Assembly: GCA_964016885.1 (NCBI GenBank)
Contig: OZ024741.1
Span: forward strand, 293,508,001-293,572,000
DNA length: 64,000 nt
Source of the DNA: Eledone cirrhosa
Taxonomy: Eukaryota
Direction of reading: 5' to 3'
In this document: positions 791 through 63,808 of the stretch, in pieces
Layout: each line of letters begins with the position of its first letter
Position numbering within the stretch: the stretch's first letter is position 1
Program-made: the position numbers and the translations under genes
The notes under the pieces: model-generated
Database searches by the model: none
Seen by the model: only the letters and a program-made list of their open reading frames with translations
What the model was told of the DNA's origin: nothing

Positions 791-982
791 ACCCAGCATG
801 CTTTTGTTTCCATTGACTTATTGAAGCAGAAATAGAAACAAAACCAAGAAAACAAAACAGAAAAACTATAACAGAACCAAAATCTAAATATTCAACAAAG
901 ACAGAAGATTGAGATTATTTAGTGAGAAATATTTACCCTTTTATGTTAGGTAGCCTGGTGTATACAATATATTGTACATTAT

Positions 983-3900
983 ATTGTATGTATATAGAAT
1001 AGATTGTATATATAGAACAATTTGTATATATAGAAAAAATTGTATATATAGAACAAATTGTATATATAGAATATATTGTATATATAGAACAATTTGTATA
1101 TATAGAACAAATTGTATATAGAGAACAAATTGTATATATAGAATAGATTGTATGTATAGAATAGATTGTATATATAGAACAAATTGTATATATATAGAAT
1201 AGATTGTATATATAGAACAAATTGTATATAGAGAACAAATTGTATATATAGAACAAATTGTATATATAGAATATATTGTATATATAGAACAATTTGTATA
1301 TATAGAACAAAATGTATATATAGAACAATTTGTATATATAAAACAAATTGTATATATAGAACAATTTGTATATATAGAACAAATAGTATATATAGAACAA
1401 TTTGTATATATAGAACAAATTGTATATAGAGAACAAATTGTATATATAGAATAGATTGTATATATAGAATAGATTGTATATATAGAACAAATTGTGTATA
1501 TATAGAATAGATTGTATATATAGAACAAATTGTATATAGAGAACAAATTGTATATATAGAATATATTGTATATATAGAACAAATTGTATATATATAGAAT
1601 AGATTGTATATAGAGAATAAATTGTATATAGAGAACAAATTGTATATATAGAACAAATTGTATATATAGAACAAATTGTATATAGAGAACAAATTGTATA
1701 TATAGAATAGATTGTATATATAGAATAGATTGTATATATAGAACAAATTGTATATATAGAACAAATTGTATATATATAGAATAGACTGTATATATAGAAC
1801 AAATTGTATATAGAGAACAAATTGTATATATATAATAGATTGTATATATAGAACAAATTGTATATAGAGAACAAATTGTATATAGAGAACAAATTGTATA
1901 TATAGAACAAATTGTATATATAGAACAAAATGTATATAGAGAACAAATTGTATATATAGAACAAATTGTATATATATAGAACAAATTGTATATATAGAAC
2001 AAATTGTATATTTAGAATAGATTGTATATATAGAACAAATTGTATATATAGAACAAATTGTATATATAGAACAAATTGTATATATAAAACAAATTGTATA
2101 TATAGAACAAATTGTATATATAGAACAAATTGTATATATAGAACAAATTGTATATATAGAATAGATTGCATATATAAAACAAATTGTATATATAGAACAA
2201 ATTGTATATATATAGAACAAATTGTATATATAGAACAAATTGTATATATATAGAACAAATTGTATATATAGAACAAATTGTATATATAGAACAAATTGTA
2301 TATATATAGAACAAATTGTATATATAGAACAAATTGTATATATAGAACAAATTGTATATATAGAACAAATTGTATATATAGAACAAATTGTATATATATA
2401 GAACAAATTGTATATATAGAACAAATTGTATATATATAGAACAAATTGTATATATATAGAACAAATTGTATATATAGAACAAATTGTATATATAGAACAA
2501 ATTGTATATATAGAACAAATTGTATATATAGAATAGATTGTATATATAGAACAAATTGTATATATAGAACAAATTGTATATATAGAATAGATTGTATATA
2601 TAGAATAGATTGTATATATAGAACAAATTGTATATATAGAACAAATTGTATATATAGAACAAATTGTATATATAGAACAAATTGTATATAGAGAACAAAT
2701 TGTATATATATAGAACAGATTGTATATATAGAACACATTGTATATATATAGAATAGATTATATATATAGAACAAATTGTATATATAGAACAAATTGTATA
2801 TATATAGAACAAATTGTATATATAGAACAAATTGTATATATAGAACAAATTGTATATATAGAACAAATTGTATATATAGAACAAATTGTATATATATAGA
2901 ACAAATTGTATATATAGAACAAATTGTATATATATAGAACAAATTGTATATATAGAACAAGTTGTATATATATAGAACAAATTGTATATATAGAACAAAT
3001 TGTATATATATAGAACAAATTGTATATATAGAACAAATTGTATATATAGAACAAATTGTATATATAGAACAAATTGTATATATAGAATAGATTGTATATA
3101 TAGAACAAATTGTATATATAGAACAAATTGTATATATAGAATAGATTGTATATATAGAACAAATTGTATATATAGAACAAATTGTATATATAGAACAAAT
3201 TGTATATATAGAACAAATTGTATATAGAGAACAAATTGTATATATATAGAACAGATTGTATATATAGAACACATTGTATATATATAGAATAGATTGTATA
3301 TATAGAACAAATTGTATATATAGAACAAATTGTATATATATAGAACAAATTGTATATATAGAATAGATTGTATATATAGAATAGATTGTATATATAGAAC
3401 AAATTGTATATATAGAATAGATTGTATATATAGAACAAATTGTATATATAGAACAAATTGTATATATAGAATAGATTGTATATATAGAACAAATTGTATA
3501 TATATAGAACAAATTGTATATATAGAACAAATTGTATATATAGAACAAATTGCATGTATAGAACAAATTGTATATATAGAACAAATTGTATATATATAGA
3601 ACAAATTGTATATATAGAACAAATTGTATATATATAAAAGAAATTGTATATATAGAACAAATTGTATATATATAGAACAAATTGTATATATAGAACAAAT
3701 TGTATATATATAGAACAAATTGTATATATAGAACAAATTGTATATATAGAACAAATTGTATATATAGAACAAATTGTATATAGAGAATAAATTGTATATA
3801 TATAGAACAGATTGTATATATAGAACAAATTGTATATATAGAACAAATTGTATATATAGAACAAATTGTATATATAGAACAAATTGTATATATAGAATAG

Positions 3901-5595
3901 ATTGTATATATAGAACAAATTGTATATATAGAATAGATTGTATATATAGAATAGATTGTATATATATAGAACAAATTGTATATATAGAACAAATTGTATA
4001 TATAGAACAAATTGTATATATAGAACAAATTGTATATATAGAATAGATTGTATATATAGAACAAATTGTATATATAGAACAAATTGTATATATAGAACAA
4101 ATTGTATATAGAGAACAAATTGTATATATATAGAACAGATTGTATATATAGAACACATTGTATATATATAGAATAGATTGTATATATAGAACAAATTGTA
4201 TATATAGAACAAATTGTATATATAGAACAAATTGTATATATAGAATAGATTGTATATATATAGAACAAATTGTATATATAGAATAGATTGTATATATAGA
4301 ATAGATTGTATATATAGAACAAATTGTATATGTAGAATAGATTGTATATATAGAACAAATTGTATATATAGAACAAATTGTATATATAGAATAGATTGTA
4401 TATATAGAACAAATTGTATATATATAGAACAAATTGTATATATAGAACAAATTGTATATATAGAATAGATTGCATATATAAAACAAATTGTATATATAGA
4501 ACAAATTGCATATATAGAACAAATTGTATATATAGAACAAATTGTATATATATATAGAACAAATTGTATATATAGAACAAATTGTATATATATAAAACAA
4601 ATTGTATATATAGAACAAATTGTATATATATAGAACAAATTGTATATATAGAACAAATTGTATATATATAGAACAAATTGTATATATAGAACAAATTGTA
4701 TATATAGAACAAATTGTATATATAGAACAAATTGTATATAGAGAATAAATTGTATATATATAGAACAGATTGTGTATATAGAACAAATTGTATATATAGA
4801 ACAAATTGTATATATAGAACAAATTGTATATATAGAACAAATTGTATATATAGAATAGATTGTATATATAGAACAAATTGTATATATAGAATAGATTGTA
4901 TATATAGAAAAGATTGTATATATAGATCAAATTGTATATATAGAATAGATTGTATATATAGAACAAATTGTATATATAGAACAAATTGTATATATAGAAT
5001 AGATTGTATATATAGAACAAATTGTATATATATAGAACAAATTGTATATATAGAACAAATTGTATATATAGAACAAATTGTATATATAGAACAAATTGTA
5101 TATATAGAACAAATTGTATATATAGAACATATTGTATATATATAAAACAAATTGTATATATAGAACAAATTGTATATATATAGAACAAATTGTATATATA
5201 GAACAAATTGTATATATATAGAACAAATTGTATATATAGAACAAGTTGTATATATAGAACAAATTGTATATATAGAATAGATTGTATATATAGAACAAAT
5301 TGTATATATAGAACAAATTGTATATATAGAACAAATTGTATATATAGAACAAATTGTATATATAGAATAGATTGTATATATAGAACAAATTGTATATATA
5401 GAATAGATTGTATATATAGAATAGATTGTATATATAGAATAGATTGTATATATAGAACAAATTGTATATATAGAATAGATTGTATATAGAGAACAAATTG
5501 TATATATAGAACAAATTGTATATATATAAAACAAATTGTATATATAGAACAAATTGTATATATAGAATAGATTGTATGTATATATAGAATAGATC
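983..5595. repeat. ~4.6 kb minisatellite, 18-bp unit GAACAAATTGTATATATA
   Basis: Continuous tandem array with GAATAGATTG variants and 20-bp (+TA) units. Confidence 0.98.
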
Positions 5596-5690
5596 ATATA
5601 TATATATGTAAAAAGTAAACAGAAATAACAAAGCAAATGTCACAGTACATTGAAGAAATATATTAGATTAATGCTTGAAATAATAGGGAA

Positions 5691-21016: not shown

Positions 21017-23373
21017 ATAATAATAATAATAATATTAATGATAATGATATTAATAATGATTTCTTTATTGGCCACAAGGGCTGACATCAAGAAAAACATT
21101 ACAGACGGCACAGGACGCTACAGGACGGGACGATGTGGGTTTTGTGCATGTAAATATTTTTATTATTTATATAAGAAAAGAAAAAAAAGGACATAGAAAC
21201 ATATATATATAAAACCAATAAAAATGAAAATTGAAACAATGAAAAATTCCCCAATAGGGGGGGGGGGGGAACCTCCAAGGGTTACTCGTGGCAAAAACCA
21301 CACAAAAGACCACAGCCATCCTGACCACCAGGGCAAGCGCCCTCTCTCAATTTTTCCAGTTTTCAAACTACAGACGTATATTCACTTGGACCATTCTCGC
21401 TACATTCACCCACCCACTTGCTAGAAGGCAGCACTTGCCTCTCCACCCTGATTTTCCTCTTCAAGTGAAACTTGAAAAAGTTAATTAGGGATTCGCCGAA
21501 GAGGAAAGTGTCTGTCTTTAACCCTTTCAACTTTGTCCACCCCACAATCTCTTTCGCCATGGCCACCAGGCAGATGAAAACCGCCTGCCCTTCCTCCTCG
21601 AAGGAAGACGGCGAGACCATCTGCACAATGGACTCAGTCGATAACCGGATCAGTCCTACACGCGACAGCAACTGTTCGACATAGCTCTACAAGTCAGCAA
21701 TGCTCGGGCACTGAACAAGTGCATGCACGACGGTTTCGTCGCTCTGCGTGCATCTCGGACAGGCTCGGCTGACGGCACTTCCGTGCCTGTAGAGCTTATC
21801 TCGAACCGGCAGCGCTCATCGGTAGCACTGCCAGGCCAGGGATTTTTGGAAGTTATCCATAGGCCCTGGGCTGAAAGTTCTCTGGAAGAGAGCAAACAGC
21901 TGATCTTCTTCGATGCCCAGGATCTCTCCGAGAACGTCGTCGCTCTTCCCCTCCACTAGTCCTCTATAGAACGCCGAGGTGGATGTTCCACCGATACTGG
22001 TGCCAAGCTGGCAGAGGGCAGTGAGCGCCTGAAGACATTCCAGTTTCCAAGCGCTATCCATCGGTCTTTTTCTGACCCAGGACTGCAGCTCCATCAAGGA
22101 GATGAGCTGTGGGAAAACGTGCCTGGCGAACGGCAACCACACCTGTTCACCGTCAAGGAAGCACCAGAGATGTCGCAGCCTCAGCACATCTTTGTGCATC
22201 ATCAGCCATGGGATGCCCAGTCCTCCACGCAACGGGTGTTGACAGCAGATGGATCGTCTGACCATGGGAGCGCGTCCGTCCCACAAAAAGCATAAGAGGA
22301 GGCGCTCCATTTTGGTGAGAGTTGGGCTGGGGTAAGGGACGACGGTGAGGCGGTAGCAGATGATGGATGCGATGCACGCATTTGCCACCTCCGCCCGGCC
22401 TTTCAGGGACAGCTTCCTCTCAGCCCATTTCTGGGTGAGGGAGGCCACCTTGCTCGTCACCTCGTTCCAGTTTTTCTCCATCTGGAAGTCCGATCCAAAC
22501 TAGACCCCGAGCAATTTAACTGGTCCGTCCGTCCAATGCCCCACGACGCTGTCGGACGGCATGGACTTGCATCTCCAGGTGCCGAGCTGCAAGCCCACCG
22601 ACTTTTCCTGGTTTATCTTTGCTCCTGTCACCACTTTGTATTCCTTGAGAGCGGTGCCGAGCATCTGGACGTGTCTGGTGCTCGATACCACCACGGTGAC
22701 GTCGTCGGCGTAAGCCGACTCAGATTTCCCGCATCCTAGTGCGCGTGAGACGCCCCTCATCGCCCCCAGTTTGCCAATACGTACAAGAGGGATGAGAGAG
22801 GACAACCCTGGCGGACTGAGCACATGATGCTGAATGGCTGCGACAGGTGACCGTTCACCCTCACAACTGAGCAGATGTCGCTGTACATCGCAGTGATCCA
22901 CCCCCTGAAAACGGGCCTGAAACCGGCTGCCTCGAGGACCGCCACCAGGTACCGATGGTCGACCCTATCGAATCCTTTGGATTGATCCAAGTTTATCAGG
23001 GCCCCACCCGTGCCAGATTCCTTAACCACCCTCTCTATGATGTATCACATGAGGTGGAGGTTGTCGTGTATGGATCTGTCCGGAATGGCGCATATCTGCG
23101 CCTCTCCCACCAGACCCTTGACGACAAGCACCAACCTCGTTGCTAACACCTTGGCCAAAATCTTGAACTCTGCATTTAGCAGAGTTATGGGCCTGAAATT
23201 ATCGATAACATCTCCCTTGTTCGGGTCTTTTCTCAGCAGCGCCACCGTTCCCCGGCTCACAAAACTAGGAATGCTCCCGTTCTGCTGCCAGTTGCAGTAG
23301 ACGTCTGCCAAGAGGTCACCGAACAAGTCTGGCATAAATGCATAAAGCTCGTAGGGCAGACCATCCAAACCTG
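21017..23373 (-). mobile_element. 5'-truncated Tx1/L1-clade LINE (RT, C-terminus, 3' UTR, (ATT)n tail), frameshifted
   Basis: PGLDGLPYELY, FRPITLLNAEFKIL, LDQSKGFDRVDH, VRQGCPLS, AYADD, RKLSLKGRAEV; GC-rich against the background; AATAAA and (ATT)n tail. Confidence 0.95.
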
Positions 23374-23741
23374 GTATTCATTTCCTGCTTCATGAATCAT
23401 GTAAAAAGAATACATATATACACATACACATACATATAAAATATCATTTTTATGTCCTACAAAACAAAAAAATATCATACCACTTGTTGCATAACTGTTT
23501 CACCACTTCAACCCATGTCTTCCATGTCTTACTTTACCTTCCTCTTCGACTTGAGCAAACTCGATATATTTCTTTTTTAACCTCTATACATCCTCTGTCT
23601 TCAATAATTATGTTCCATTACCATGCAACATTAGCCTATATAAAATACTGATAAAGTCTCCATTTTGTTACTTGAAGAGAGAATCCGATTGTTGCAATGT
23701 TACAAGTAGAGGTAACAGCGACATAATCTTTTTTGCCCATG

Positions 23742-24830
<1,089 letters not shown>

Positions 24831-25699
24831 AAATCTCGCGAAATAAATTCAAAAACGAATTATGAATATATATATATATATATATATGAGTGATGTGTGT
24901 GGGTGTATATATATATATGTGTGTGTGTGTAAGATAACAAAAGGATCACATGACAACTACTTTGGGCTTCTTTGACAGGGAAATAGTAATTTCATATCTT
25001 CCTATCTCTTATTTCTTTCTCTCCCCCACAGTTGACAAACAGGTCAGTGGTCGACCACTGGTATCATATATGTGGCTAGGTTTCATCCCTTTACAGATAA
25101 AGTTCCTAAATATAAATTCTAGTTAATAGATTATTCCTTTACACATCTCACCTGTGGAATTCTCTTCCCTCTTTTTGCTTTCCTGGCCACTCTGATTTGC
25201 AAATATTAAAAAAGTAACATAAAATGTCACCTTTCCTCTTCTTGAATTATGTTCTCTCTGTCATGTTCTTTTCCCTTCTCTTTAACCCCTTGTATTTTAG
25301 TGGGTTTATTGCCTTCCTTGGGGGTGAGTAAATAAAAAAATAAATAAATAAAATATATATATATATATTCATTCTTTAATTTTATTAAGGCTAAATAGTG
25401 AGTCATGTTACTCTGGAGCTGTCCCTGTTTATCACAGGGTCATTAGACAAGAGTTTTTGTCTTAATAAAATGAACATTAATACTCTACTTCTTTATTGAG
25501 TTCTCTTTTCTCACAGACATCAACGACACACACACACATATATATATATATTTATATACACATACATACACAAATGTCTGATCTTGAGCTAATCTTCTGT
25601 GAAATGCACATAATAGGCTGACATACAATTAAAATATAAATAAATGTAAATGAAACTTCATTTCTTCGATTATATCTATCTTTCTCTCTCTCTCTCTCT

Positions 25700-25772
<73 letters not shown>

Positions 25773-25976
25773 TATATATATATATATACACATACACACA
25801 CACCCTTCGTGTCAGCTGCATGTATACAGTTCAGTACTGTTGACCAACAACAATTTAACAGTACTGCCTATAGTCATAGACACAACACATTGCATATAAT
25901 ATGAGAACAGATTACAATGTGATTTTGAAACCACATTATTAAAAGAGATTATGTAGACTATACTTGTGCTGGAGAA

Positions 25977-28405
25977 TGTGATGGTGGGGATGGTGGCTGT
26001 TGTGGTGATTGTGATGGTGGGGATGGTGGCTGTTGTGGTGATTGTGATGGTGGGGATGGTGGCTGTTGTGGTGATTGTGATGATGTTAATATTGATGGTG
26101 GGGATGGTGGGGATGGTGGCTGTTGTGGCGATTGTGATGATGATGTTAATAGTGATGGTTGTGATGGTGAGGATGGTGGCTATTGTGGTGATTGTGATGG
26201 TGGGGATGGTGGCTGTTGTGGTGATTGTGATGATGTTAATAGTGATGGTTGTGATGGTGAGGATGGTGGCTATTGTGGTGATTGTGATGGTGGGGATGGT
26301 GGCTGTTGTGGTGATTGTGATGATGATGTTAATAGTGATGGTTGTGATGGTGAGGATGGTGGCTGTTGTGGTGATTGTGATGATGTTAATATTGATGGTG
26401 GGGATGGTGGGGATGGTGGCTGTTGTGGTGATTGTGATGATGATGTTAATAGTGATGGTTGTGATGGTGGCGATGGTGGTTGTTGTGGTGATTGTGATGA
26501 TGTTAATATTGATGGTGGGGATGGTGGGGATGGTGGCTGTTGTGGCGATTGTGATGATGATGTTAATAGTGATGGTTGTGATGGTGGGGATGGTGGCTGT
26601 TGTGGTGATTGTGATGATGTTAATAGTGATGGTTGTGATGGTGGGGATGGTGGCTGTTGTGGTGATTGTGATGATGTTAATATTGATGGTGGGGATGGTG
26701 GCTGTTGTGGTGATTGTGATGATGATGTTAATAGTGATGGTTGTGATGGTGGGGATGGTGGCTGTTGTGGTGATTGTGATGGTGGGGATGGTGGCTGTTG
26801 TGGTGATTGTGATGATGTTAATAGTGATGGTTGTGATGGTGAGGATGGTGGCTGTTGTGGTGATTGTGATGGTGGGGATGGTGGCTATTGTGGTGATTGT
26901 GATGGTGGGGATGGTGGCTGTTGTGGTGATTGTGATGATGATGTTAATAGGGATGGTTGTGATGGTGGGGATGGTGGCTGTTGTGGTGATTGTGATGGTG
27001 GGGATGGTGGCTGTTGTGGTGATTGTGATGATGTTAATAGTGATGGTTGTGATGGTGGGGATGGTGGCTGTTGTGGTGATTGTGATGGTGGGGATGGTGG
27101 CTGTTGTGGTGATTGTGATGATGATGTTAATAGTGATGGTTGTGATGGTGAGGATGGTGGCTGTTGTGGTGATTGTGATGGTGGGGATGGTGGCTGTTGT
27201 GGTGATTGTGATGATGATGTTAATAGTGATGGTTGTGATGGTGAGGATGGTGGCTGTTGTGGTGATTGTGATGGTGGGGATGGTGGCTGTTGTGGTGATT
27301 GTGATGATGATGTTAATAGTGATGGTTGTGATGGTGGTGATGGTGGCTGTTGTGGTGATTGTGATGATGATGTTAATAGTGATGGTGGGGATGGTGGGGA
27401 TGGTGGCTGTTGTGGTGATTGTGATGGTGGGGATGGTGGCTGTTGTGCTGATTGTGATGATGATGTTAATAGTGATGGTTGTGATGGTGGGGATGGTGGC
27501 TGTTGTGGTGATTGTGATGATGTTAATAGTGATGGTTGTGATGGTGAGGATGGTGGCTGTTGTGGTGATTCTGATGATGATGTTAATAGGGATGGTTGTG
27601 ATGGTGGGGATGGTTGCTGTTGTGGTGATTGTGATGATGATGTTAATAGTGATGGTTGTGATGGTGGGGATGGTGGCTGTTGTGGTGATTGTGATGATGA
27701 TGTTAATAGTGATGGTTGTGATGGTGGGGATGGTGGCTGTTGTGGTGATTGTGATGATGTTAATAGTGATGGTTGTGATGGTGAGGATGGTGGCTGTTGT
27801 GGTGATTGTGATGATGTTAATAGGGATGGTTGTGATGGTGGGGATGGTGGCTGTTGTGGTGATTGTGATGATGATGTTAATAGTGATGGTTGTGATGGTG
27901 GTGATGGTGGCTGTTGTGGTGATTGTGATGATGATGTTAATAGTGATGGTTGTGATGGTGGGGATGGTGGCTGTTGTGGTGATTGTGATGATGATGTTAA
28001 TAGTGATGGTTGTGATGGTGGTGATGGTGGCTGTTGTGGTGATTGTGATGATGATGTTAATAGTGATGGTGGGGATGGTGGGGATGGTGGCTGTTGTGGT
28101 GATTGTGATGATGATGTTAATAGTGATGGTTGTGATGGTGGGGATGGTGGCTGTTGTGGTGATTGTGATGATGTTAATATTGATGGTGGGGATGGTGGCT
28201 GTTGTGGTGATTGTGATGATGATGTTAATAGTGATGGTTGTGATGGTGGTGATGGTGGCTGTTGTGGTGATTGTGATGATGATGTTAATAGTGATGGTGG
28301 GGATGGTTGGGATGGTGGCTGTTGTGGTGATTGTGATGATGTTAATAGTGATGGTTGTGATCGTGGCTGTTGTGGTGATTGTGATGATGATGTTAATAGT
28401 GATGG
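25977..28405. repeat. ~2.4 kb GTG/ATG-derived compound minisatellite (33-bp and 57/60-bp units)
   Basis: Unit GTGATGGTGGGGATGGTGGCTGTTGTGGTGATT, with or without GTGATGATGATGTTAATAGTGATGGTT. Confidence 0.97.
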
Positions 28406-28699
28406 ATAGTGATAGTGATGATGGTAATCGTAGTGGTTGTGATGGTGATAGTGATAATGATAATAATAGTGATAATGATGAGGATGGTGATTATGGTGGT
28501 AGTGGTGGTAATGAAGATGATAGTGATGATAATGAAGATGGTGGGTGTGGTGTCAATTGTATTCACACATGTACACACACACACACACATAAATACACAT
28601 ATTTATAAATGTAACTGTATGTGTATGTATAAGTGTATATTTGTGAAGCTTGAATATATATGTGAATCTGTCTGTACATATATATAAATGCATACATAT

Positions 28700-31158: not shown

Positions 31159-31335
31159 ATCATCATTATCATCATCACTGTTTTACATCCATTCTTCCAT
31201 GCTAGCATGGGTTAGACGGGTTGTCCTATTGTGGGCAATGCCAAGTCAAGTGACCATGTCTTGCTCATACAGGACTGATTTTGGCTTGGTTTCTACAGCT
31301 GGATGCCCTTCCTAACACCAACCTCATTTACAGTG
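31159..31335 (-). mobile_element. RTE-type 3' tail
   Basis: Near-identical to 63084-63255. Confidence 0.85.
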
Positions 31336-31790
31336 AAAGACCTGAAAATCCGCCTCTTCATTGTTGTAGTGGATTCTGTGCTGCTGTACGGGTCTGAGAC
31401 TTGGACACTGACCAAGAAACTCACTCAGATGGTGGATGGGTGCTACACGAGAATGCTGAGGATGGCTCTGAACATTAATCAGTATACACTGAGGATGAAA
31501 AACTCAGAGCTGTATGGGAGCCTCCCAAAAGTCAGCTCAAAAGTGACACAGAGGAGACTGAGGTTAGCTGGACATGCTCACCGACAACCAGAGTTGACAT
31601 TGCACTCAGTGCTCTTGTGGGAGCCCCTACATGGACACACTGGAAGAGGAAGACCAAGGTTAACGTATGTTGATGCCCTAAGGACAGAGACTGGTCTGTT
31701 GGAGACGCAGGACATGGCAACGATAATGAGGGACAGGGACCGCTGGAGAGAACTCGTCCATGGATCTCGGGAATTTTACCCGCCCTAGAT
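31335..31790 (+). mobile_element. RTE-clade LINE 3' fragment (different family)
   Basis: VLLYGSETWTLT...RRLRLAGHAHR...GRGRPRLTYVD. Confidence 0.9.
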
Positions 31791-40061: not shown

Positions 40062-40376
40062 AATGAAATTATTTTGTAAAGTGCTCAGGTGCACTACACT
40101 TCATCAAAGGTGCATGTATAGTACATAGAATAATATACAAATGTCAGGGAAGTGAATAGTGTATGAGTCGTGATATACATGTGTGTATGTGTATGTAGGG
40201 GGAATATTAGGTGTAGTGTTGGCGAATCTCAGGAAGCATGGAGGTTTTAAAGGATGCAGTGTTTCAACAACTAACAACTGATGCAGATAGTTTGTTCCAT
40301 GCTTCAGCAACTCTGAGCGTGAGAAAATGTTTCCGAAAGTCATGGGAACTGTGCTGTTTTCTGATTTTATGGGCAT
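40062..40376 (-). mobile_element. CR1 LINE 3' end
   Basis: HKIRKQHSSHDFRKHFLTLRVAEAWNKL; (ATT)-rich tail. Confidence 0.88.
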
Positions 40377-40897
40377 CGCCTTTGACAGAAATTGTCCTTT
40401 CCTCATCTTGTATGAAACGTAGCGATTGTCTTCATGTACCACCAGCCTAATGAACTTTTCATCCACGCCTTTCTCCCTTGCAATGGCACGCATCGACTTG
40501 CTAGGTTCATTGTTGATGATATCCTGAACTTCAGCGACGAACTCGGGCGTTCTGAAGGTGTCAGATCGTCGATCATGTGTTTTCCTCTCTGATGTTGCTT
40601 CGTAGTCAAATCTTGAATCTTCCAATTCCTTTCTCACCTTTTCCACCATTCCCATTCTGACGCTGAGCAAGTCTGAAATTTCCTTATTTGTCCTCCCAGC
40701 ACGGATTCCAACAAGAACTCTGTGTCTCTTTCACAAATTTGGAGGTTCAAAATTATTCATAATCAATTATTCTGAAAATATATAATGGAAATATAGTCAC
40801 TGTTTTTATGAAGACAAGAGTGACAACGGAAGTAAAAAAAAATTATTTGCATAAAACTAGCAGTTGTAAATTGCGAACAAATATCGTCCACACCCTG
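40377..40897 (-). mobile_element. Tc1/mariner (maT-like) 5' fragment: TIR and transposase HTH region
   Basis: TA|CAGGGTGTGGACG terminus; RTPEFVAEVQDIINNEPSKSMRAIAREKGVDEKFIRLVVHED. Confidence 0.85.
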
Positions 40898-48039: not shown

Positions 48040-48955
48040 ATGCAATAAATAAACCTCAAATTGTTGGTCCTGTTGGGGAAAAGTCCATCAAAAGCACTTG
48101 AAATACTTGAGTAAGTGTAAGGAGATAACACCTTGTGGCACACATGTTTTTGAGTGGCACAAGAGATTCAGAAAGCAGTGCAAAGAGGTGGAAGATGACT
48201 CCAGGAGTGGGAGTGCTTCAACAAGCTGGACTAAGGTCAACCTTGAGTCAGGTGGTGTATGGCAATTGTCAGTTGATTGTTTGAATGATCAGCAGGACAT
48301 GAAAAAAGATAGTATTTGGAAGATTATCACCGAAGTGTTTTCAACTGAACTAGCTTGGCTTAGTAGATTCATCACTGGTGATGTGACATGGATTTTTAAG
48401 TTCAACCCAGAAACAAAGCACCAGAGCTGTCAATGAAAGTCTTCGATATTGCCAAAGCCAAAAGGACAAGACAGTCAAAGTCAAAAGTCAAAGTCATATT
48501 GATCACTTTCTTTGATGTGAGAGAAATCGTTGACTGTGAGTTCTTGCCAGAGGACCAGACAATTAATTGGTAAGTCTTCAAAGAGATCCTGTAGCATTTT
48601 ATTCCCTCAGTGCATTAGGAGAGATGAGATTTGTGGCAGGACAACTCATGGCTACTTCAATATGAGAATGCACCTGTTAACAACGACCTGAGCAGCTGGC
48701 AGTTCCTGGCCAAGCAGAACATTGCCATAATGAAACAACATCTTTGTTCACCTGATCTTGCTTCATGGGGCCTCATTTTAAAGACGTGGAAGCCACATCT
48801 TCAAATAAGGAGTTAAGGGGCATCCCAGAAGAATCCTTCCAGCAGTGCTTACAAGCATGGCAGAGAAGGATGGAAAAGTGCATTAGACTTGAAGGAAAAA
48901 ACCATGTAGTTTGTTGTTTGGAATTGAAATAATTTGTGACACCATTCCCATTACT

Positions 48956-48962: not shown

Positions 48963-49004
<42 letters not shown>

Positions 49005-49088
49005 TACACACACACAAGAAATATGTATGTATACCAAAAGAGAAAGTCTGTATGTCTGTTATATATATATATAGTTTTAATATAGAAG

Positions 49089-49139
49089 AGCTTCTACAGG
49101 ACTAGAACTGTTTCATTCGTGAGAAATCATCAGGAAGCT
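49089..49139 (-). ncRNA. Type I hammerhead (mirror copy)
   Basis: Exact reverse complement of 49755-49805. Confidence 0.82.
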
Positions 49140-49754
49140 GGCTGTCCAAGTAAATGGTAGTATTTATGTCTTTCCTTATCTGGTGGTAGGAAAGGGTGAG
49201 GATCGGGATGGGTGTAGGTCATTGGTTGAAGGATTTAAAGAAAGGGGATTCATTAAATGCTAATTCTTTAAAGCTATAATATTAACAAAGGCAGAAAGAA
49301 TACTGTAAACAAGTTCAAAATTGGAATACAAATCCTTGTTTATCACTTAAAGTAACAATGCCTATAAGACAGGTGTCTACAGGATGGGTGGGGTTTAAAG
49401 AAAAGGGAAATTCTTTAGAAGCTAATTCTTTAAGGCTAAAATGAGGGTGACAAAGGCAGAAAAGGTTCCATAGAATTTCTTTTTTCTTTAAACCATTGAA
49501 CCCCACCCATCCTGTAGACACCTGTCTTATAGGCATTGTTACTTTAAGTGATAAACAAGGATTTGTATTCCAATTTTGAACTTGTTTACAGTATTCTTTC
49601 TGCCTTTGTTAATATTATAGCTTTAAAGAATTAGCATTTAATGAATCCCCTTTCTTTAAATCCTTCAACCAATGACCTACACCCATCCCGATCCCCACCC
49701 TCTCCTACCACCAGATAAGGAAAGACATAAATACTACCATTTACTTGGACAGCC

Positions 49755-49805
49755 AGCTTCCTGATGATTTCTCACGAATGAAACAGTTCTAGTCCTGTAG
49801 AAGCT
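49755..49805 (+). ncRNA. Type I hammerhead ribozyme, intact core
   Basis: AGCTTC-CTGATGA-T-TTC-tcac-GAA-T-GAAA-CAG-ttctagtc-CTG-TA-GAAGCT: GUA triplet, predicted cut after 49799; ATTAAA downstream. Confidence 0.85.
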
Positions 49806-49891
49806 CTTCTATATTAAAACTTTTATACTCTGCTATGTATTGAGTACCTTACTTACTGTGATTACCTCCGATTCAACCCGGAATAGCTTAT

Positions 49892-49968
<77 letters not shown>

Positions 49969-50630
49969 GTTATATATATATATACACACAAGAAATATGT
50001 ACGTATACCAGAGAAAGTGTGTATGTGTTTGTTAATGACTTTAAACAGCTGATGCTGTGGTTTCATCATTAGCCAACCATTCAACTCATCCAATGCGATC
50101 TTGCCATTTTTCTTGCTGTCCTTTTTATCTTGTTAACGACTAATTAAATAAATTGGTTCTTCAAAGCAAAGGGGAGGTAATTAGAGAAAATAATGAACAA
50201 AATAGGACCCAACATCTCTCCTACATAATGCTAGCTCTTATTGGATGAACATAGCATACAAGCCTCTGTTTCTGCACTTAGGTTTCTATCTATCTATTTG
50301 TCTCTCTTCCTTTGTCTATATCTGTCTTTCTTCATATCTGGTCATACCTCTCTCTCATACACTCTTTCTACCCCTCTCTCTGTACTCCACTCTCTCACTG
50401 TTTGTACACCACTCTCTATTTCTCTTCCTATGCCTCTCTCTACCTCCTCTTTCTCATACCTTCTTTTTACTTCTCTGTCTCATTCTCTTTCATAATCTCT
50501 CTCTCTCTCTCTCTCCTTCTACCTCCCTCATTTTCTCTCCTAGTCTCTTTATATATGTGTATATGGATATTGTTAGTACATTGTTGGTATCATGTATTTG
50601 TGTGTGGGAGTTTCTTTGAGAATGCATGTA

Positions 50631-60744: not shown

Positions 60745-61222
<478 letters not shown>

Positions 61223-61228
<6 letters not shown>

Positions 61229-62698
61229 AGAGTTTAGCGTAAAAGTTGGCGTCCATCAGGGCTCTGTTCTCAGTCCACTACTATTTATTATTGCCCTTCA
61301 GGCTATAACAGAGGAGTTCAAGACAGGCTGCCCATGGGAACTCCTATACGCAGACGACCTGACACTCATAGCGGAATCAATGGCCGAGCTAGAGAAGAAA
61401 TTCCAAACATGGAAGCACGGCCTAGAGTCAAAAGGACTTAAAATTAACCTGGCTAAGACCAAAGTACTAGTTTGTAGGAAAGAAAACAAGGCGGCGGCCC
61501 CTTCTGGGAAATGGTCGTGCTCGGTGTGTAGGAAAGGCGTAGGTAGAAACTCCATTTTATGTCCTAAATGCAAAGTATGGGTGCATAAAAGATGTAGTGG
61601 GATCACAGGTAAGCTAACTAAGAACATAGATTTTACATGTGGCCGGTGCTCTGGTGCAATAAGTAGCAGCAAGTGCCCACAAACTACTAGCTCTTTCAAT
61701 TGCGCAGAGGGTTCTATAGAAATAGTGGACAGCTTCCGTTACCTGGGCGATAAAATCAGCAGTGGGGGAGGGTGCTCTGAAAGTACTGTAGCTAGAGTCA
61801 GAACTGGTTGGAAAAAGTTCAGAGAGCTTATACCACTATTAGCTGCTAAAGGGTTCTCACTAAAAATGAAAGGCAGGTTGTACGATGCCTGCATACGAAC
61901 AGCAATGCTGCATGGCAGTGAGACCTGGGCATTGTGTGCAGAGGATATACGCAGACTAGAGAGGAACGAAGCTTGCATGCTCCGCTGGATGTGTAACAGT
62001 AATATACGTGAACGGCAAAGCATAAACGAACTAAGGAAAAAATTAGAGATAAGAGGGATCAGATGTTGTTTACTCGAGAAAAGGCTACGTTGGTATGGAG
62101 ACGTGATGCGCATGAAAGTCGATAGCTGTATAACAAAGTGCAGGGCAATAAAGATAGACGGTAGTCACGGAATAGGCAGACCTAGAAAAACCTGGGACGA
62201 GCTGATAAACTCCGACATCACACACTTACACCTCTCCAAGACAATGTCACTGGACCGAGACCTTTGGCGGTACTCAGTAACAGAGAAGACCCGCCTTACC
62301 TAAATATATAGTAAAACCTACTCCAGCCAGTAGGCATCTCTAACAAAATACACCCCGTCCCACCACCACCACCCCCACCCGATCCACACCACCCCGTTCT
62401 ATGTAAAGTTATGTTGGTGCCGCGCCATCGAGGCCGAAACAAATGAGATCGTGTAGGTGTCACGACAAAAAAACACACAGTCCACGCTGTAATGTGGCCG
62501 TGTAGGCAACACGGTAAAAACCTCCCAGACCCACACTGTAAATGTGGTTGGTGTTAGGAAGGGCATCCAACTGTAGAAAACCTGCCAGACAGTCCTATGC
62601 GAGCAAGACAATCACTCTTGCCTCAAGTGGGACTACCCCCGTCCAAACCCATGCAAGCGTGGAACACGGACGTTAAACGTTGATGATGATGATGATGA

Positions 62699-63082: not shown

Positions 63083-63791
63083 ATCATCATCATCATCACC
63101 GTTTTACGTCCGTTCTTCCACGCTAGCATGGGTTAGACGGGTTGTCCTGTTGTGGGCAGTGTCTGGTCGGCTGACCATGCCTTGCTCATACAGGAACTGA
63201 TCTGGCTTGATTTCTACAGCTGGATGCCCTTCCTAACACCAACCTCATTTACAGTGAGTGCTGGGTGCTTTTTCGTGGCGCCTACACGTCCACTTTACAG
63301 TGTGGGCTGGGTGCTTTTTTGCCGTGGCACCTCCACGACCACCTTGCGGTGGGGGGGGGGGGGGGGGCATATTGTTTATATGCTTCAGCATGTACCCATG
63401 GGAGGTCGGGTACCCTGTATTACTGCGTGACGCCAGAAGTCACGGTCGTGTGTCATTGACTTTGAGAGGTGTAGTTGGGTAAGGTCGGCTTTTATCACCT
63501 CATCCCAAGTCATCTTGGGTCTTCCCACTCCGCGGTTTCCATCAACTTCTAGTGCTCTGCACCTTTTTATGCAGCTGTCATCCTTCATACGCATCACATG
63601 TCCATACCAGCGTAACCGCCTCTCCTGCACGCAGCATTTGATTCCTCTTATGCTCAGTCTCTCTCTCAATTCATTTATGCTTTGTCGTTCACGTATATTA
63701 CTGTTACACATCCATCGGAGCATGCAGGCTTCGTTTCTCTTTAATCTACGTAAGTCTTCCACCTTCAGCGCCCAGGTCTCACTACCATGCA
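63083..63791 (-). mobile_element. RTE LINE 3' fragment (sister subfamily)
   Basis: HGSETWAL...RRLRWYGHVMR...GRPKMTW, then UTR and (GAT)n; flanked by (TA)n. Confidence 0.95.
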
Positions 63792-63808
63792 ATATATATA
63801 TATTTATT

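Follow-up and report, generated by a model that had tools for sequence, protein, structure and literature searches.

The window analysed here, a stretch of 64,000 nucleotides of Eledone cirrhosa DNA, contains a hairpin of about 750 bp with a hammerhead ribozyme motif on each strand. The question raised by this locus is whether such a structure is maintained as a source of double-stranded RNA, as the initial annotation had suggested, or whether it is the product of a mobile element, and in that case how its two arms came to face each other.

The arms of the inverted repeat, 49073-49398 and 49496-49821, were measured at 326 nt each, 99% complementary with 3 mismatches and 97 nt between them, close to the arms of ~325 bp with few mismatches originally described. 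The one-sided extension of ~70 nt was likewise found on the right arm only, at 49822-49892, and the ATTAAA reported after the hammerhead is located at 49813-49818. The internal ~65-bp repeat noted in the spacer turned out not to be a local duplication: its units are ~78% identical and represent an old internal duplication of the element, present in 29/29 other loci. The segment 49467-49399 on the minus strand is the left arm running on 5' into the element, matching the sequence found upstream of the arm in other copies, and the true head-to-head junction lies near 49467/49468, not at the edges of the spacer. When the arms are placed on the family reference, 342 columns are common to both; within these they differ by 5 substitutions, and the left arm lacks 8 nt. 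The features of the locus (49060-49966) are listed below, each with the evidence used.

49060-49072, no strand: left remnant of the (TA)n target (sequence).
49073-49467, minus strand: left arm, read as a 5'-truncated pseudo-LTR, i.e. the 3' end of a Penelope-like element (PLE), tail-less, ending ...ATTAAAAC and followed by TA; reference ~168-574, with the 8-nt deletion near 49396 (reference alignment).
49089-49139, minus strand: left-hand type I hammerhead motif, with the same sequence as its right-hand counterpart (sequence and fold).
49161-49168, minus strand: TATA-like box, left copy, which would drive leftward (outward) transcription (mirror of 49726-49733).
49399-49467, minus strand: spacer segment in which the left arm runs on 5'; within the old internal duplication of the element it is the upstream unit (other copies).
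49463-49471, no strand: head-to-head junction with imperfect microhomology, 6/9 letters fitting both arms (reference alignment, overlap -9).
49468-49892, plus strand: right arm, read as a 5'-truncated pseudo-LTR with tail; reference ~216-646 (reference alignment).
49726-49733, plus strand: TATA-like box, CATAAATA in the window and TATAAATA in most copies, beginning 29 nt before 49755 (low variability across arms).
49755, plus strand: putative RNA 5' end of the element, between C and A, at the first base of hammerhead stem I (pile-up of arm 5' ends).
49755-49805, plus strand: type I hammerhead, with stem I of 6 bp, stem II of 3 bp on U.U and stem III of 4 bp with a self-complementary loop; predicted cut after 49799 (sequence and fold).
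49813-49821, plus strand: ATTAAA and pseudo-LTR end, putative first start site of reverse transcription (3'-end peak at reference 574).
49822-49892, plus strand: PLE tail of ~70 nt, leading into leader and ORF in coding copies; its end is the putative second start site (3'-end peak at reference 644/646).
49893-49966, no strand: right remnant of the (TA)n target (sequence).

The right flank of the locus is single-copy in the assembly, and no empty-site contig was found for it. A diverged direct repeat of ~55 bp, at 48990-49060 and 49975-50035, was evaluated as a target duplication and discarded, being too diverged and separated by TA tracts; it looks like the trace of an earlier duplication of the sequence next to the TA tract.

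Searched on both strands with a regular expression, the window gave no match under a strict stem filter, and the hammerhead was therefore read from the sequence and its fold. On the plus strand of the right arm, stem I is formed by AGCTTC (49755-49760) and GAAGCT (49800-49805), and the core by CTGATGA (49761-49767), GAAA (49780-49783) and GTA (49797-49799), the last agreeing with the cut after 49799 predicted at the outset; stem III consists of 4 bp closing an 8-nt loop which contains CTAG. The mirror hammerhead of the left arm occupies 49139-49089 on the minus strand. The motif had been called intact, and this is true of all 12 core letters and of the three helices, but helix II has 3 bp on a U.U base and Rfam does not recognise it: the scans revealed no hammerhead at the gathering score or up to E=10, and only chance miRNA-like matches. 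The U.U base of helix II, in place of G10.1-C11.1, was found in 221 arms, and a similar one is described for the axolotl HHR_Amex2, whose monomer cleaves weakly and whose dimer cleaves more strongly, according to the available text of PMC7229834. One compensatory change in stem I, from C-G to A-T, is present in 21 arms and would probably reflect a single subfamily event.

Folding of the bare 51-mer places the hammerhead within 1 kcal/mol of the minimum, with unremarkable z-scores (0.5 to 1.2), while in longer contexts lacking the other arm the hammerhead helices are disfavoured (pair probabilities <=0.16). Two molecules can pair with each other through their loop III regions, at a computed -12.8 kcal/mol. 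A small hairpin at 49798-49811 (TAGAAG-CT-CTTCTA region) overlaps the 3' strand of stem I and forms at the expense of the hammerhead; in this way the RNA could escape cleavage.

Comparison of the right arm with its own 3.0-Gb genome provided 3327 first-look candidates, 40 of which were scored, at 92-97% identity. Counted as exact matches, the tail-less end of the left arm, searched as a 27-mer, occurs 163 times and the tailed end 400 times. Most copies stop at the tail and are followed by (TA)n; at loci picked by a pattern not containing TA, (TA)3 or longer follows 48/53 tailed arms. At two loci (L009, L029) the tail runs on into a leader and an ORF, and this stretch has 1107 candidates in the genome. 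Among 20 stretches fetched around ORF-side matches, L114 has an unbroken ORF of 713 aa. The ATG lies ~45 nt beyond the tail. In another copy (L097) the order is hammerhead, tail, ORF, TA/TG-rich 3' UTR, body, hammerhead, tail and (TA)n, that is pseudo-LTR-ORF-pseudo-LTR plus tail; the tail occurs on one end and matches the sequence which follows the 5' pseudo-LTR.

Relatives of the ORF number 241 at E<=1e-20 among 2585 candidates. A structure predicted for the L114 ORF from an alignment with 78 of the 120 relatives listed reached a pLDDT of 91.7, against only 32 for the single-sequence model. In a Foldseek search with this model, matches 1 to 5 were telomerase reverse transcriptase (RT) structures (best E=1.3e-9, TM 0.35). 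YRDD is invariant across 79 aligned sequences. Look-alike clusters bear RVT_1 and GIY-YIG, the latter on 29-50% of their members; a VY...YIG motif is visible in the ORF, with a weak Pfam GIY-YIG match under the cut-off (E=0.14). Pfam gave no RT match on the 713-aa ORF and nothing useful on ORF fragments and three homologues, and sequence and profile searches of the ORF against solved structures gave nothing significant. From the continuation of the tail into the ORF, the unbroken ORF and its telomerase-RT-like fold, the arms of the window are almost certainly the 5'-truncated 3' ends, or pseudo-LTRs, of this abundant element, a PLE of probable endonuclease type. Its clade is probably Nematis or Neptune; we take the motifs and the length of the ORF to suggest Nematis. 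The Cys-rich linker of the ORF, between RT and putative endonuclease, reads CNC-x5-C-x5-C and differs from the exact CX2-5CxxC given in the available part of PMC8557442. The copy in the window is likely dead, since it has neither ORF nor leader.

Some further observations concern these copies. L114 and L115 (G000:C1:108467700-108482700) are ORF copies lying 5.9 kb apart with the same 5' flank, either a local duplication or an assembly duplicate. L039 and L059 carry a similar insert of ~190 bp inside the pseudo-LTR, at different positions. Other inverted-repeat elements are nested in the TA/TG tract of L097 (4650-5600) and in the 3' UTR of L071; TA tracts seem to collect several hairpin-forming families.

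Since dozens of loci show this asymmetric build, it is extremely unlikely that the hairpin is a read chimera or a fold-back artefact of the assembly. Its arms differ by 5 substitutions and the 8-nt deletion, are unequal at both ends, and terminate at the two exact ends of the family. An artefact would agree with the finding that the private alleles of the window at 49530 and 49564 were not seen in contigs of runs X1-X3, and that no piece among those listed spans the whole stretch; these runs, however, contain about half of the sampled words and may derive from another individual, and contigs drop rare variants.

The ends of family members were evaluated in a census of 262 distinct arms lying away from locus edges and mapped on the family reference; 191 of these come from loci selected with two exact patterns. 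The loci fetched in this way correspond to 70/163 tail-less and 50/400 tailed matches, drawn from the first 100 listed; they represent one subfamily, to which the patterns belong, and include two loci (L187, L188) which resemble one duplicated locus and were counted twice. BLAST-derived ends are fuzzy by a few bases. The 3' ends are bimodal, with 81/262 arms ending at reference 574 (pseudo-LTR end) and 93/262 at 644/646 (tail end). For the 191 arms, 79 of the 5' ends fall in the first 8 bases of the hammerhead (equivalent of 49755-49762) and 4 in the preceding 8 nt; the others are located further inside (29), at the cleavage site (4), upstream (59) or past the reference (16). Seamless read-through of the hammerhead 5' edge is found in 245 arms. 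An exact palindromic junction on the 5' AGCT of the hammerhead occurs at 124 loci genome-wide in a search permitting two ambiguity letters, against 0 loci for AGCT at the cut site, 6 for the loop III CTAG and 0 for the upstream AGCT in three control searches permitting none. When only arms without inverted partner text upstream are considered, 12 start at reference 507-511 and 6 at 495-506.

Upstream of this edge, at 29 nt when counted from the base before it, ATAAATA is the least variable among 121 seven-mers (125 arms), with 17/875 departures vs 646/5250 in its flanks. The RNA of the element would probably be driven by this TATA-like box and start at the first base of stem I, and the template for reverse transcription appears to be mostly uncleaved RNA; both the start site and the uncleaved template are deduced from DNA ends. 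Arms starting at the cut site (L036, L186, L091) hint at some cleavage. In L036 (~1460-1530) and at the 5' end of the ORF copy in L091/L109, the arm starts at the predicted cleavage site or at +1, after a repeat of ...TATATTAA, and these starts are possibly template jumps from the end of the cleaved RNA. In runs X1, X2, X3 and X12 the family-wide depth steps ~100-fold at the hammerhead edge; no weight was given to this step, since at 95% likeness the older subfamilies are lost upstream of the edge. A splice acceptor behind the pile-up, suggested by the CAG at the edge and by the D. virilis precedent, is disfavoured by arms which are joined to other DNA with no common upstream exon.

Pairing of the arms was analysed next to their ends. 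Loci of five kb contain an inverted pair in 18/40 and 22/40 cases. The fetched loci include 66 inverted pairs, 55 joined within 20 nt; the latter are 45 short+tail, 5 mid+short, 2 ORF+tail, 1 mid+tail, 1 short+short and 1 ORF+short, and none is tail+tail by the classes used. Close pairs are short+tail in 21/25 cases when picked by the tailed end and in 20/24 when selected through the tail-less one. The rule has exceptions, and a few close opposite-strand tailed pairs are found among the matches listed for the tailed end. Of the 45 short+tail pairs, 10 have a short arm that extends 10 nt or more beyond its partner on the 5' side, 13 have a tailed arm that does so, and in 22 the two are within 9 nt of each other; either arm can thus reach further, and neither is simply a copy of the other.

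Paired arms are nevertheless related. At variable sites, agreements and disagreements are 217:9, with 87 disagreements expected, and at the hammerhead edge both arms stop in 30 pairs and both pass in 12, with 2 + 1 mixed cases (p=4e-8); the common alleles could also come from later arm-to-arm conversion. Such sharing, together with the perfect AGCT-centred junctions, is accounted for by a different route for the same element, in which the cDNA folds back and copies itself, or antisense RNA primes itself, and the endonuclease resolves the hairpin at the tail boundary. A process of this kind has been proposed for rotifer PLE palindromes, as reported in the accessible text of PMC3846280. We consider it unlikely here. 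In 10 of the 45 pairs, that of the window included, 5' sequence present in the tail-less arm is missing from the tailed arm, while the tail is missing from the tail-less arm; with each arm carrying sequence absent from the other, a simple fold-back cannot give both. Moreover, the same starting edge is seen in the 12 arms joined to other DNA (reference 507-511), and the other palindromic 4-mers are not hot (0, 6 and 0 loci).

The junction common to 124 loci might also suggest a non-autonomous unit, either MITE-like or a retrozyme, with each hairpin spreading as a whole. Against this, 37 minimal hairpins show 27 junction types, the breakpoints of long hairpins differ between loci, and the hammerheads are inverted, whereas retrozymes require a tandem arrangement according to the available text of 10.64898/2026.07.22.740005. 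This explanation appears highly improbable.

To the family membership, the coding parent, the TA target and the pairing of one short with one tailed arm, which the data show, we add the interpretation that the locus is very probably a 5'-truncated, head-to-head PLE insertion in a TA microsatellite, likely produced by priming of a cDNA from each of the two target strands and joining through microhomology. In this mechanism, the protein of the element would cut both target strands; one strand would start reverse transcription at the pseudo-LTR end and the other ~70 nt further, at the tail end, both copying the same kind of sense RNA, mostly uncleaved; and the two cDNAs would join through microhomology. 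Most events would run off at the RNA 5' end, leaving small hammerhead-only hairpins. The arms of the window extend ~290-340 nt upstream of the putative start, and their template would therefore be a downstream pseudo-LTR in a longer RNA, in tandem or in a read-through transcript, or else a strand jump occurred. Two-strand priming, taken by itself, is the reading that we favour, with some reserve. More tentatively still, the whole family may be a genomic record in which one target strand primes at the pseudo-LTR end and the other at the tail end, both on one uncleaved sense RNA with its 5' end at the initial base of the hammerhead and 29 nt downstream of the TATA box, the run-off strong-stop cDNAs being preserved as hammerhead-only hairpins.

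The alternative that the hairpin is kept as a functional source of dsRNA, acting as an ADAR or siRNA substrate or as a ribozyme switch, was evaluated on its transcripts, surroundings and age. By computation, an RNA reading through the hairpin would fold at -627 kcal/mol, and the masking of the ribozyme by full pairing, as initially proposed, holds: 8/8 tested hammerhead pairs have probability 0.0 in the whole-hairpin read-through transcript. The TATA-like boxes of the arms, however, would drive transcription away from the junction, with each RNA beginning where its hammerhead begins, and yield no long dsRNA. The arms differ at 5/342 columns and by one deletion, compared to a mean of 4.3% in 16 long pairs and 5.8% in 46 short ones, and share 4 departures from the family majority, 3 of which are rare elsewhere (3/342 vs 3/3042 in other long pairs, p=0.016). 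This likeness may speak for function, or it may reflect conversion: recent insertion or conversion gives high arm identity without selection, dozens of similar hairpins decay at ordinary rates (5.8% between arms in short ones), and the locus was chosen for looking perfect. The hairpin may be young, as first described: the data would fit a recent event whose source was already slightly diverged (~0.7% per arm), and also an older insertion (~2%) partly homogenised by conversion.

No host gene was recognised among the 58 window ORFs of at least 110 aa, in which only repeats and transposon remnants could be discerned; the locus may lie within an intron of a large gene. The sequencing runs listed included none of RNA, a result neutral as to expression. 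A bacterial promoter scan was empty, the model being irrelevant to this host. A functional role is very unlikely: a dedicated dsRNA device and an ADAR or siRNA function are both unsupported, and any dsRNA from the locus is likely incidental. The element seeds many perfect hairpins, and those inserted into transcribed regions might come to serve as substrates for editing or for small-RNA production.

The rest of the window contains further repeats. A short frame at 24498-24848 (minus strand) has a Cys-rich C-terminal stretch and resembles a remnant of another PLE, and the segments 48053-48900 and 40104-40730 are taken to be Tc1/mariner transposase-like remnants. LINE-like reverse transcriptase remnants are located at 21816-23377, 31279-31788, 61200-62303 and 63385-63807, and long, strand-skewed simple-sequence arrays at 933-5667 and 25812-28608.

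Taken alone the locus is ordinary, and a ribozyme on both strands of a long hairpin is in such genomes a routine PLE signature; the family statistics make an open mechanism testable. How PLEs form tandem and inverted ends is an open question according to the accessible text of PMC8557442. The exact, countable junctions give sharp mechanistic predictions, and an unbroken ORF copy exists for an in vitro test. The literature searched, with most subscription papers and supplements outside its scope, contained no statement of the two-strand model, of the short+tail rule or of the 5' wall.

Inverted pseudo-LTRs with a one-arm tail and opposite-strand hammerhead pairs are already published PLE features, and the comparisons which follow refer to the available portions of the cited papers. 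Inverted 5' copies, tails and a microsatellite bias are described for PLEs in general (PMC8557442), while inverted pseudo-LTRs, a one-sided tail and a TATA box in the pseudo-LTR are reported for Pen2/Pen2a of the rotifer Adineta vaga, for which the route preferred by Arkhipova et al. was self-priming with an antisense template (PMC3846280). These elements and Penelope of D. virilis (PMC2377424) share with the family described here the inverted 5'-truncated copy, the tail on one arm, the head-to-head arrangement, the microsatellite target and a single ORF in the parent, here a putative RT-EN one; the TATA-like box is common to the window element and the rotifer PLEs (PMC3846280). In D. virilis Penelope, promoter and start site are also inside the pseudo-LTR, but the internal promoter is TATA-less and an intron ends at helix I (PMC2377424), unlike here. 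Further differences from the compared EN+ PLEs are the tail, ~70 nt here vs 30-40, the long TA/TG-rich tract in the 3' UTR of the parent, and the window insertion itself, composed of the two ends alone.

Hammerheads in PLE pseudo-LTRs, with opposite-strand pairs 100-700 bp apart in Schistosoma, are described in PMC4209133; they resemble those reported here in the type I motif, the palindromic loop III and the opposite-strand pairs, and differ in that the window motif has a 4-bp helix III and a 3-bp helix II on U.U, not on G10.1-C11.1. Retrozymes are PLE derivatives (10.64898/2026.07.22.740005), and the non-LTR ones (PMC7229834; 10.64898/2026.07.22.740005) similarly carry a type I hammerhead in non-coding PLE-related repeats. 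They are head-to-tail tandems, whereas the locus in the window is inverted: each strand bears one ribozyme, and no tandem of hammerhead-containing units on one strand is present there.

The closest biochemical parallel to the model is Poseidon PAc of the lizard Anolis (PMC11167929), for which it is reported that in vitro both target strands are cut and extended, that reverse transcription starts at two sites bounding the tail, that RNA downstream of the start sites is needed, and that uncleaved RNA is the main template. The two tail-bounding starts, the cutting and extension of both strands and the uncleaved template recur as putative steps in the model, and an AT-rich target is common to both. 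In Poseidon PAc the hammerhead already contains the start of the ORF, which makes the tail coding, while here the ATG lies ~45 nt past the tail; the available text of the same paper does not derive inverted insertions from the two start sites. If the two-strand model is true, a single step with no antisense template would account for both the inverted pseudo-LTRs and the one-sided tail. In LINE-1 twin priming, both target strands prime cDNA, which is joined through microhomology and leaves an inversion. Those inversions join non-overlapping parts of the RNA; in the family described here, both arms copy the same stretch from fixed internal sites.
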